A stretch of DNA of 64,000 bases, filler included, from Basidiobolus ranarum (taxonomy: Eukaryota): assembly GCA_040143965.1 (NCBI GenBank). It is 19 parts of 19 records of this genome, joined end to end, with 100 filler letters (N's around TTAATTAATTAA, not from the genome) between each part and the next. Parts side by side here need not be neighbours in the genome. Positions count along the whole stretch, not along the records: positions 50,816 to 54,087 come from JASJQH010009472.1; 18 more parts are not named here. One strand, given 5' to 3'. The position numbers were made by a program, and so were the translations under genes. The notes under the pieces are model-generated. The model was not told the origin of the DNA, made no database searches, and worked only from the letters and a program-made list of their open reading frames with translations. Positions within the stretch are counted from its first letter, which is position 1, and every line of letters starts with the position of its first letter. Positions 50,816 to 54,087 of this stretch are shown here, piece by piece.

Positions 50816-51011
50816 GGGGGGAAGAGGCCGGGGACGTGGTCGTTTTGGAAGAGGTCGCGGACGTTTTGGCCGTGGCCGGTTTGGTAGAGGTGGAAGGTTT
50901 GGTCGTTTCGGTGGTCGCGGTTTTGGTAGATTCGGAAGATTCGGGAGATTTGGTTATGGTGGATACGGATGGAATGATGACTGTGGTGGAGATGATTGTG
51001 GAAGCTGCTAG
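50816..51011 (+). CDS. Gly/Arg/Phe-repeat secreted precursor, copy 1 (3' end only)
   Basis: GGRGRGRGRFGRGRGRFGRGRFGRGGRFGRFGGRGFGRFGRFGRFGYGGYGWNDDCGGDDCGSC*. AATAAA about 100 bp downstream. Confidence 0.85.
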
Positions 51012-51874
51012 TCGATATTTACCAGCAATCTGACGATCTTGAATGACACTTCAGAACCTCTTTATACCTTACTTTCACCCCATAGTCTACTATTCCTTTT
51101 GCCTAATCAAATAAATCGATTCACTGTCCGTCTTCGTACCATGTTAGGGGAATATTTTAATCACCACTGATATATTTTTTAGCAGAACTCCAATGGAGCA
51201 CAATAAGAACTATTGAATTGCCCCCCGTACCTCACTATGCGAGAAGTGCATCATTCTCTCCTCAAATGGTATACAACTCTGGGGAGTCACAGCCTAGATA
51301 TCCTAAATACATAGCGTAGGGTATCAAGTGCTGCCAAGGTAAATGGAATGTATAATTAGACGGCCTTTGAAAAACGTTATGATATGCTAAATGTTTGTAA
51401 AAGTTTGAGCATGCCAGTAGCAAGGGGGCGCCTGAATTATATTGCGTGAGAAACACACCTTTGGGTACATCTCATTAAATATCAGATCAAATACTGGTTT
51501 CTTCCTATTTAGTGCTTTTAATATATGTATCTAAGCTAAAGTATTCAATACAATTAGTTCGTCTTACCGACTGCTTTTGTAAACAGTCGATTGATTTGTT
51601 GGTCAGAGTAAAACTTATCACTACCTGTTTCCAAGAAATATATAGCAGCCTATGTTGTCATTTATTAGTCTTGATGGAACTGTTTTATACTATATGGCCT
51701 TTGTTTTAGGCACAGGAACGTAACATTATGTTCAGGTGAATCGCCCACCTCTCCCTAACACAACCCTTCTCACTACTTTAAACTCATTAATGTAAAAGCA
51801 GTGAATACAGAACTCTAATATCAGCTATTTCAATATGACGGCGTCTTCGCTGTGACAAAATTCAGTATCCAATG

Positions 51875-51881
51875 TATAAAA
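51875..51881 (+). promoter_or_regulatory. TATA box of copy 2 (equivalent TATAAAA at about 53529 for copy 3)
   Basis: TATAAAA about 75 bp upstream of both ATGs, within conserved upstream sequence. Confidence 0.6.
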
Positions 51882-51949
51882 AGACCATGTATTACTTGAT
51901 TTTCATACAGCCTCAGTTGCTTTTCAACTATCACTTACTGGTATCAAGG

Positions 51950-52611
51950 ATGTATCTCAAAGCTACTTTTTTCAGTGCCATATTGTTAGCATCTCTAACC
52001 AATGCAGCCGACAATAAGCTAAGCTCACCTTCTGATCAACCTATTGAATTCTCTGCATCTAATCTTCCGTCAGATGAGAAGACTGTAATTGATGCAGATA
52101 TCGATTTCTTTGTTCCTGACTTCATGTTGGACAAGGAAGTTGAACTCACCCCCGAAGAATCCCAAATGCGTCGTATCAACTAAAAAAAGTATTATCTCAC
52201 TTGTCTAAAGCCTCTGGAGTGAAGAAGGGAAAACTCAACCCACTCAAGGTCAAGAAAGTTGGTAAACTTGTGACAGGGATGAGTCCTGAAACAGGTGACC
52301 ATGACACTCGTAACTCTACCTCGCCTGCTGTGGACAGTGCAGAGGATAACGATATCGACTACAGTGTAGACGGTGAGGGGAACACAGATTTAGATGCTTC
52401 ACCAGAAGAAACAGAGTTACGACGAGGAGGTCGTGGAGGTCGTGGTCGCTTTGGCCGTGGTCGCTTTGGCCGTGGCCGGTTTGACGAACGTGGAACATTT
52501 GGTCGTTTCGGTGGTCGCGGGTTTGGTAGATTCGGCAGATTTGGGAGATTTGGTTATGGTGGATACGGATGGAATGATGATTGTGATGGAGATGACTGTG
52601 GAGGCTGTTAG
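51950..52611 (+). pseudogene. Gly/Arg/Phe-repeat secreted precursor, copy 2 (full length, 1-nt deletion at about 52180)
   Basis: Signal peptide MYLKATFFSAILLASLTNA. AAC-TAA here versus AAC-CTA in copy 3. Tail ELRRGGRGG..FGYGGYGWNDDCDGDDCGGC*. Confidence 0.8.
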
Positions 52612-53604
52612 TAAATATGTACTGAAAAACTGATGCTCACACTCCAAGTTTACTATTCCTTTTTCTTAATTCAATAAAAGGATTTCTTGTCGAACTTCAT
52701 ACTATGTTACTGGGATATTTTCCTTTTTATTGGTCTTCTAGTACAACTCTAATGCGGCAATAGTTTATAAATTTCCACCAAAGACAAAGAGTGTGTAGCA
52801 TATAGATCCTAAATGCAAACCTTATTCACAGGTACTACAAACACTGCAGGGATATATAGTTAAACAATTGATACTTAGAGTTGTAGTGTGTGAGATCTTA
52901 CTGTGAGCTTTAGCATGCTAGTAAACACGAGGTGCTTTGATTCATGGGCGCCACTATTAATTATTTTGTGTTGATAACTAATATTTGCTATATGGTGATT
53001 TGGTAATCAAAGTAGAACGTCATTACCTACGTCCAAATATAAACACCGTAGCTAAGCATTAGGAACTAATGAATTTCTCAACGCCTCTCACTATATGGAC
53101 ACATCACTCTCCCCTCAAATGGTATACAATTTTAGAGTCACAGTCTAGATATCCTAAATACATAGCGTAGGATATCAAGTGCCACCGATATAAATAGAAT
53201 ATATAGTTAGACGGCCCTTGATAAACGTTGTGACACGTGAAATGCTAATAAGTGTTTGAGCATGCCAGTAAGGAGATATTTGAATTATATTGCGTGAGAA
53301 ACACATCTGTGAGTGCATCTCTCACTAAAATACTGGTTTACCAACAACCTTCAGAAACAATAAATTGACTTGCTAATCAAGGTAAAATTTATCACTGCCT
53401 GTTTCTAACAAATATAAAGCAGCCTATATTGTCATTTATTAACCTTAGCGGAACTGTTTTTTACGATATGGTTTATGCGCTTTTTCAATATAACGACGGC
53501 TTCGCAGTGAAAAAGAGATTATCCAACGTATAAAAGGACCAGATATTACTTTGCTTTCATACAGCTTCAGTTGTTTTTTCTACTATCACTTACACATACT
53601 AAAA

Positions 53605-54087
53605 ATGTATCTCAAATCTACTTTTGTCAGTGTCATATTGTTAGCCTCTCTAACTAGTGCAGCCGACGACAGGCCAAGCACACCTCTTGGCCAAAATGTT
53701 GAATCTTCTGCATCTACTTTTCCACTAAGTGGCACGATGGTCATTAACGCGGATATCGATTTCTTCGTTCCCGACTTCATGTTAGATAAGGAAATTGAAC
53801 TCACTACCGAAGAATCTCAAATGCGTCGTATCAACCTAAAAAAAATACTATCTCGCTTGTCCAAGGCCTCTGGAGTGAAGAAAGGAAAACTCAACTCACT
53901 CAAGGTCAAGAAGGTTGGTAAACTTGCGACAGGGATGAGTCCTGAAACAGGGGACCATGCCACTAGTAATTCTGTCTCACCTGCTGTGGACAGTGCAGAG
54001 AATAGCAATATTGACTACAGTGTAGATGGTGAGGGGATCACAGACTTAGATACTTCCCCAGAAGAAACTGAGTTACGCCCAGGAGGC
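53605..54087 (+). CDS. Gly/Arg/Phe-repeat secreted precursor, copy 3 (intact frame, 3' truncated)
   Basis: MYLKSTFVSVILLASLTSAADD..DIDFFVPDFMLDKE..QMRRINLKK..SPEETELRPGG, collinear with copy 2. Confidence 0.85.

Follow-up and report, generated by a model that had tools for sequence, protein, structure and literature searches.

The DNA analysed here is a window of 64 kb from the genome of Basidiobolus ranarum, an early-diverging fungus of amphibian and reptile guts that is occasionally responsible for human infection. One piece of the window, at positions 50816-54087, is exactly one whole contig of 3272 bp and carries three copies of a gene, arranged head to tail and all on the plus strand. 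Judged from their sequence, the copies are best read as members of an orphan family, in a tandem array that the contig holds only in part; the family would encode secreted, convertase-processed precursors of a polycationic, disordered peptide built of glycine, arginine and phenylalanine (GRF) repeats. At least three tandem paralogues about 1.6 kb apart had been proposed in the initial annotation, and this arrangement holds: the stops of copies 1 and 2 lie 1600 bp apart, and the ATGs of copies 2 and 3 are separated by 1655 bp. In a self-BLASTN comparison, 51824-52430 matches 53479-54086 at 84% identity and 50853-51022 matches 52453-52622 at 87%, and three intergenic blocks also align, at 76-81% identity.

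The layout that the initial annotation had pieced together from the copies is found complete, and in one frame, in six full-length GRF paralogues of 223-237 amino acids (aa). An intact precursor consists, in order, of a signal-like N-terminus, an acidic pro-region, the junction PEETELRR/GGRGG, a GR/RFG repeat and a Cys tail, and all of the motifs named initially (DIDFFVPDFMLDKE, MRR, the Lys-rich stretch, EETELR(R/P), the GRF repeats and the tail FGYGGYGWNDDCxGDDCGxC) are present. Residues 1-19 of the paralogues form a short hydrophobic N-terminus that ends in LT(N/S)A/A. By simple rules, a hydrophobic core lies within the first 20 residues of all eight full-length paralogues (maximum Kyte-Doolittle mean over 10 residues, 1.74-2.82); the small-residue site LT(N/S)A/A follows the core in most of them and is replaced by AYGHH in the paralogue P0010. 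The same core and small-residue site are seen in copies 2 and 3 of the contig, and 10 of the 11 visible N-termini keep a signal-like start. The acidic segment that follows has the pattern (F/I)IPDFMLD(K/E)E..ELTPEESQ(M/L)(R/H)R and is succeeded by a basic stretch, LKKILSRLSK..., and then by a long acidic spacer. Beyond the junction lies a cargo of 61-78 aa, in which Gly makes up about 40% of the residues, Arg 27% and Phe 12%; its N-terminal half is poly-GR, and in its C-terminal half RFG recurs with period 3. The tail, G.G.GW(N/Y)DDCxGDDCGxC, is short and acidic; three cysteines are present in 7 of the 9 visible GRF-type C-termini, with four in P0003 and two in P0009.

Averaged over all pairs of the six full-length GRF paralogues, identity is 0.52 in the signal, 0.50 in the first segment of the pro-region and 0.39 in its middle, and rises to 0.97 at the junction, 0.81 in the repeat and 0.75 in the tail. 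The junction is thus the best conserved block, as would fit a processing site, and it reads RR in 7 of the 10 sequences where it is visible. Charge is distributed in the same manner in all eight paralogues: the pro-region has a net charge of -9 to -19 and the C-terminal part one of +12 to +25, so that a negative pro-region balances a positive C-terminal peptide and the whole protein without its signal comes to between -3 and +8. The candidate released GRF peptide carries a net +12 to +16 over its 61-78 aa, with a hydrophobic moment of 0.84-1.07 at 100-120 degrees. AlphaFold2, run with an alignment of 10 rows, gave a mean predicted local distance difference test score (pLDDT) of 43 with no residue reaching 70, and placed helices at residues 3-17, in the signal region, and at 68-88 of P0001 (pLDDT 53-63); the ESM Atlas model has a pLDDT of 0.40. 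The protein is accordingly predicted by these models to be disordered save for the signal and helix 68-88. Two further suggestions on the anatomy were considered and dropped. The Lys-rich middle was examined as a second, amphipathic-helical antimicrobial peptide, but the best 18-residue moment in copy 3 is only 0.41 and is located elsewhere. Reading the C-terminal CGxC as a CaaX or Rab-type prenylation motif was rejected by reasoning only, as it does not have the CaaX form and clashes with a signal peptide.

Positions of the features on the contig are collected in Table 1. The contig start truncates copy 1, which lacks its 5' part; what is left of it is 95% identical to the C-terminus of P0001. 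In copy 2 the acidic segment contains DIDFFVPDFMLDKE, and the frame is broken by a deletion of one nucleotide: a single C stands at 52180 where copy 3 has two (copy 3 reads AAC CTA AAA AAA). Because of this lost C the frame ends early, at 52181-52183, after ...MRRIN, and part A is what the public annotation gives as the 80-aa model P0007. No additional stop is met past the frameshift. Since selection persists downstream (see below) and no further stop has accumulated, the break is either very recent or a sequencing error beside the run of seven A. Copy 3 has an acidic segment, a first RR, a Lys-rich stretch, an acidic spacer and the junction, and breaks off after GG, where the contig ends when only two codons of the repeat have been read; the RP that had been noted in place of RR at its second site is indeed there. 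The repeat number had been said to vary while the tail stays nearly invariant, and the copies bear this out, with 61 aa after the RR in copy 2, at least 64 aa visible in copy 1 before the contig start intervenes, and tails of copies 1 and 2 that differ at 2 of 20 residues. The first AATAAA lies in a 3' block that is conserved between copies (51076-51158 against 52640-52721). As to the conserved upstream DNA with TATA boxes reported initially, the boxes stand at the same distance from both visible ATGs, that of copy 2 within the block 51824-52430 aligned at 84% identity, but a special conservation of the upstream DNA was rejected: with synonymous divergence (dS) of 0.31-0.44 and only 551 of 938 intergenic bases alignable between copies 1 and 2, its 76-84% identity is about what is expected as the residue of a duplication of this age.

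Table 1. Features on the contig with the three gene copies and the linkers at its ends (positions in the 64-kb window)
Feature	Position	Strand	Remarks
Artificial linker, N44-TTAATTAATTAA-N44	50716-50815		Contig begins at 50816
Copy 1, 3' fragment	50817-51011	+	64 last codons (GR/GRF repeat, tail FGYGGYGWNDDCGGDDCGSC) and stop
AATAAA	51110-51115	+	About 100 nt past copy 1 stop
TATAAAA box	51875-51881	+	75 nt 5' of copy 2 ATG
Copy 2, part A	51950-52183	+	ATG at 51950; signal-like N-terminus, acidic segment, first RR, premature TAA
Copy 2, signal-like N-terminus	51950-52006	+	Predicted cut after LTNA
Copy 2, first RR	52169-52174	+	
Copy 2, part B	52180-52611	+	Frame displaced by 1-nt deletion; Lys-rich stretch, acidic spacer, junction, peptide
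Copy 2, junction RR	52420-52425	+	Within SPEETELRR
Copy 2, GR/GRF peptide	52426-52608	+	61 aa, ends WNDDCDGDDCGGC
Copy 2, stop	52609-52611	+	
AATAAA	52673-52678	+	About 60 nt past copy 2 stop
TATAAAA box	53529-53535	+	75 nt 5' of copy 3 ATG
Copy 3, 5' fragment	53605-54087	+	First 161 codons
Copy 3, signal-like N-terminus	53605-53661	+	
Copy 3, first RR	53824-53829	+	
Copy 3, RP at junction	54076-54081	+	Within SPEETELRP
Artificial linker	54088-54187		Contig finishes at 54087

The ratio of nonsynonymous to synonymous divergence (dN/dS), obtained by Nei-Gojobori counting, is 0.34 between the pro-regions of copies 2 and 3, with 0.41 over the first 75 codons and 0.25 over the next 84, which lie past the frameshift; between copies 1 and 2 it is 0.14 in the repeat and tail. 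The dS, 0.36 in the pro-region and 0.43 in the repeat and tail, is no lower in the repeat than in the leader, so that the repeat owes its conservation to selection on the peptide and not to gene conversion. Nor does the repeat behave as a DNA microsatellite, since four to five Arg codons and four Gly codons are in use and Tandem Repeats Finder reports short arrays only, of 2-3.6 copies. Judged by these substitution patterns, the members of the family are real genes under selection.

Relatives were found in B. ranarum and nowhere else. In a word-based search of 5.8 billion clusters the 161-aa pro-region of copy 3 matched two B. ranarum proteins, the C-terminal part of one of these recovered four further members, and the proteins collected in the word-based searches (P0001-P0006 and P0011) are every one from B. 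ranarum. When the pro-region of copy 3 was run with phmmer against 1.84 billion representatives, five matches reached E<=0.001: P0002, P0007, P0009 and P0010, all of B. ranarum, with E values of 1.9e-36 to 7.9e-08, beyond what chance would give, and one long repeat protein that has no matched stretch and was taken as an artefact. P0007 (80 aa) is not a further gene but the stump of copy 2. Since P0002 and P0004 have consecutive locus tags on one 7912-bp contig, the tandem arrangement recurs elsewhere in the genome, and the family numbers at least 11 loci in the assembly, three on the present contig and eight annotated elsewhere. Neither the word-based searches nor the exhaustive phmmer search of representatives returned a homologue from another organism, and the annotated proteins of other Basidiobolus proteomes in the searched collections gave no match. 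A scan of metagenomes with the alignment of the six paralogues produced 595 pattern matches, none of which was confirmed by tblastn. At the gathering score, Pfam-A placed none of six queries (the 161 aa of copy 3, both parts of copy 2, P0001, P0009 and P0010) in a family; a sequence search of the PDB gave 13 matches at E<=1, all of them to RG-rich tails or comparable stretches of low complexity, with Sm D1 the strongest at 2.3e-4; and the ESM Atlas offered no usable feature match, its structure rows having meaningless template modelling scores of 0.20-0.29. The strings GRFGRFG, FGRGRFGRG and GRFGRG are in no paper of the searched literature, and WNDDC occurs there once, in an unrelated clinical protocol. 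The family, which had been called unrecognised, keeps that status, and on these searches is apparently restricted to the species or genus.

Not all members of the family carry the same cargo. P0010 (204 aa) aligns to copy 3 from the signal through PEETEL (32% identity, E 4e-18), and continues as YRR-YGGS-RR-YDYDRY-RR-HDYDRY-RR..., that is, as hexapeptides of Tyr, Asp and Arg split by RR, with seven RR in 51 aa. P0009 has GRF repeats and a C-terminus that reads GRYGGYGYDCGC, with a YDCGC tail. Compared along its length, the family appears as one leader joined to exchangeable C-terminal cargo. P0011 (128 aa) is a related model that comprises the leader only and whose start is not signal-like, and is probably a mis-modelled or truncated gene. 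Among fungi, B. meristosporus is described as the richest in Kex2-processed repeat proteins (KEPs), with 43 including a Tyr/Asp-rich type, S-3, that is confined to Basidiobolus (PMC7329392, available text). P0010 may belong to type S-3; a search with P0010 returned proteins of B. ranarum and none of B. meristosporus. The criterion for a KEP, beside a signal peptide for the endoplasmic reticulum, is at least three tandem repeats, each of at least 8 aa, between KR, KK, RK or RR sites (PMC7329392). The KR/RR sites of the GRF paralogues (0-4 per protein) do not delimit repeats, and the units delimited by RR in P0010 are only 4-6 aa long.

The window is not a contiguous chromosome. It consists of 19 pieces of about 3.3 kb each, ordered by decreasing length, and 36 runs of exactly 44 N pair around TTAATTAATTAA to make the 18 linkers. 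Because artificial linkers separate the contigs, genes beyond 50816-54087 are no true neighbours of the array. On the contig itself there are, besides the three copies, small open reading frames (ORFs) only, with no other gene and no tRNA; Rfam gave no match on the 3272 bp, and tblastn of the paralogues against the whole window gave no extra copy off the contig, only chance matches at E>2. The preceding, unlinked contig has an ORF of 318 aa at 48908-49864 on the minus strand with a C-terminal BAG domain (E 6e-10), and at its end (50371-50601, minus strand, and 50600-50715) an open stretch on the minus strand reaches the linker. The following contig, likewise unlinked, encodes an intact concentrative nucleoside transporter of 499 aa at 55937-57436 on the minus strand (E 2e-77; domains Nucleos_tra2_N, Gate and Nucleos_tra2_C). 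A 147-aa ORF on another contig, at 57850-58293 on the minus strand, has the Pol polyprotein beta-barrel domain PF22936 (E 2e-24) and is a retroelement fragment.

It is probable, on the sequence evidence given above, that the family consists of real, selected precursors which are secreted and processed. The processing model is accepted mainly because of the design, in which a leader and an invariant junction are combined with exchangeable cargo, together with the balance of charge. In this model the precursor would enter the endoplasmic reticulum, and its acidic pro-region would neutralise the cationic part, keeping it harmless and soluble in the secretory pathway and protecting the producer. 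A kexin-type convertase would then cleave after the RR of the junction in the late Golgi, and the Cys tail would form a disulfide loop or a dimer. The free peptide would be secreted and, outside the cell, would bind polyanions, first the anionic membranes and afterwards the nucleic acids and ribosomes of microbial competitors or grazers, a mode described as polycation poisoning. That the released peptide is an antimicrobial or cytotoxic polyanion binder of this kind is the likeliest of the functions considered, but is put forward tentatively and with the balance somewhat against it. It draws on the report of Boeynaems et al. [quoted passage not shown]

Several observations weigh against these proposals. 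No copy on the contig is intact as assembled, as the contig ends cut copies 1 and 3 and the frameshift breaks copy 2. The dibasic pair is missing from the junction in 3 of 10 sequences: P0005 has RH, copy 3 has RP and P0009 has R-G. At the first site, 8 of 10 carry RR and the other two, P0005 and P0006, carry HR; P0009 is without the whole first-site block, both the acidic segment and the basic stretch. What stands of the Kex2-type layout in the initial annotation is thus the architecture, as carried by the intact paralogues, the charge balance and the conserved junction; the dibasic sites are not universal and the formal definition of a KEP fails. Identity within a repeat of two to three letters is also inflated in part by composition. 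In antimicrobial families the mature peptide is usually the variable part, and a structural or self-assembling role fits better with a family in which the mature peptide is the most conserved part. In the same sense, the nlp-29 cluster of antimicrobial peptide genes in Caenorhabditis elegans is reported to be under positive selection (PMC2453101). Finally, the available part of a survey of six Entomophthoromycotina, B. meristosporus among them, records kexins of class S8B in Conidiobolus incongruus only (PMC6169396).

The conservation of the peptide bears most directly on the main rival function, namely that the peptide is an extracellular material such as a glue, a coacervate or a wall-matrix protein. 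Its Arg, aromatic and Gly residues would act as stickers and spacers that condense, with one another or with polyanions, once the acidic pro-region has been removed, and its Cys tail would cross-link by disulfides, possibly in the adhesive of the capilliconidial beak or in a coat of spores or hyphae. We consider this unlikely. In its favour, Arg/aromatic/Gly sequences are the classic grammar of condensation, the marine cement and foot proteins that coacervate are also basic and rich in Gly and aromatic residues, and the GRF peptide has both this composition and predicted disorder. The Phe/Arg spacing is kept in register, with the low dN/dS and high identity of the repeat given above, which suits a material over a peptide in an arms race; the odd number of cysteines in 7 of 9 C-termini would leave a free thiol for intermolecular links, and a protein that condenses with itself would have to be masked on its way by a cleavable acidic part of this kind. 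An adhesive is reported to cover the apical beak of the capilliconidia of Basidiobolaceae (PMC13370150, in the text available). Against this, nothing ties the family to a structure or a life stage, hallmarks of known adhesives such as those of the dihydroxyphenylalanine (DOPA) type are lacking, and expansion into many tandem copies is no less typical of effectors or of antimicrobial peptides. RGG/FG-type sequences that form condensates are normally confined to nuclear RNA-binding proteins. A more specific version, on which we place less weight still, holds that such a sequence has here been exported, with a cleavable acidic pro-domain that opposes condensation and a disulfide tail, as a switchable coacervate for the beak glue or a surface matrix; a single proteolytic cut at the invariant PEETELRR/GG junction would release it. 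The family might also be productive elsewhere while the array on this contig decays or is mis-assembled; copy 2 would then be a pseudogene, and the contig would be a fragment, collapsed or chimeric, of a larger repeat. The 1-nt deletion at 52180, which leaves the public annotation with the 80-aa stump alone, would agree with this, as would the fact that both contig ends fall within the GR repeat or at its start, where a short-read assembly tends to break, and the position of the RP of copy 3 only 7-12 nt from a contig end. Copies 1 and 3 are nevertheless open over their whole readable extent, and copy 2 past its frameshift is under purifying selection (dN/dS 0.25 and 0.14) and free of further stops, so that we rate decay or mis-assembly as improbable.

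The remaining alternatives concern what is cut and where the protein resides. The product could be a precursor of small peptides, of the kind of a KEP, a pheromone, another signal or a ribosomally synthesised, post-translationally modified peptide (RiPP), with further cuts at internal RR or single R, or with the Cys tail as a modified core peptide. P0010, in which the family's leader precedes hexapeptides separated by RR, speaks for such a precursor, as do an RR inside the repeat, beyond that at the junction or other sites, in five of the six full-length GRF paralogues and the KEP richness of B. meristosporus referred to above. The GRF members do not, however, have the repeats between dibasic sites that define KEPs; P0001, P0009 and copies 1 and 2 have no internal RR; the 61-78 aa are conserved in register throughout, as for a single unit; and no gene for a modifying enzyme lies on the 3272-bp contig. 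We rate small-peptide processing as improbable, slightly more so than decay of the array. A variant in which cutting of the RFG-R units would yield RF-type peptides, imitating the RFamide signals of animals in the gut of the host, seems to us scarcely credible. It is also very improbable, if less so, that the hydrophobic N-terminus is not a signal peptide and that the proteins are intracellular nucleic-acid binders of the RGG or glycine-arginine-rich (GAR) type. The sole matches among solved structures are indeed RG tails, of Sm D1 and of ribosomal and chromatin proteins (E 2e-4 and weaker), but these are compositional and limited to the repeat (query 124-219). Pfam finds no RRM or other intracellular domain, the signal-like start is kept in nearly all visible N-termini, and GAR proteins have nothing that corresponds to the Cys/acidic tail or to the acidic leader.

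If the preferred reading, a secreted and processed polycationic peptide, is correct, the family would provide a natural poly-GR/RGF peptide that is secreted with a built-in acidic safety catch, and a genetically simple system in which a condensation-prone polycation is made, transported and released. The peptide could also be a fungal antimicrobial or cytotoxic agent of a new type, or could serve as a bio-adhesive. To our knowledge, secreted-peptide families of this kind are almost unstudied in Zoopagomycota, and a single leader with differing cargo would be informative on how such families diversify in that group. The evidence so far is drawn from the sequence of one genome.

Among known systems, the family shares with the fungal KEPs (alpha-factor, Rep1, Ece1/candidalysin and the ustiloxin type; PMC7329392, available text) a signal-like N-terminus, a leader, an RR at the junction and a lineage-specific, multi-copy occurrence, and in P0010 short repeats separated by RR stand behind the GRF-family leader. 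It differs from them in that dibasic sites do not separate the GRF repeats, the cargo being a single polycation of 61-78 aa, in that it has no sequence relation to the KEP types compared, and in the absence of the junction RR from 3 of 10 sequences. Cationic antimicrobial peptides such as defensins, cathelicidins and amphibian skin peptides are made as precursors with an anionic pro-piece. As in these, the acidic pro-region of the GRF family approximately cancels the charge of the cationic C-terminal part and the putative cut is at a basic site, and the Arg and aromatic composition of the peptide is like that of peptides which act on membranes or condense nucleic acids. There is no homology, however, and the GRF peptide is much longer and richer in Gly, is predicted to be disordered, ends in an acidic tail with three cysteines, and is the conserved and not the variable part of its precursor.

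Nematode peptides have a motif of the GYGGYG type near the C-terminus that resembles the tail of the GRF family. The nlp-29 cluster of C. elegans is, like the present array, a tandem set of genes for small secreted peptides rich in Gly and aromatic residues (PMC2453101, available text), but the nematode peptides are Gly/Tyr-rich with few Arg and without an acidic leader or Cys tail, and positive selection is reported for them, against a dN/dS of 0.14 in the GRF repeat and tail. With the RGG/GAR domains of nuclear RNA-binding proteins the peptide has in common its GR/RGG/RGF composition, its predicted disorder and the tendency, to be expected from these, to bind nucleic acids and to condense. 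It differs from them in lying behind a signal-like N-terminus and an acidic leader, in having no RNA-binding fold and in its Cys-bearing acidic tail; membership of that class takes RG repeats with an RNA-binding or nucleolar domain and without a signal peptide, a combination that the family does not present. Plant class II glycine-rich proteins have a signal peptide, a Gly-rich repeat and a Cys-containing C-terminal end, to which the signal-like start, the repeat and the tail of the GRF family correspond, and marine cement proteins are basic and aromatic and suited to coacervation and cross-linking as the GRF peptide would be, but through Lys or Tyr/DOPA chemistry. From both of these the family is set apart by different repeat types, by the lack of any sequence relation, by its Arg chemistry and by its occurrence in a fungus. 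By analogy of design, and not through membership based on homology, the family would appear to work most like the secreted precursors of the Kex2 type and the antimicrobial precursors with an anionic pro-piece.

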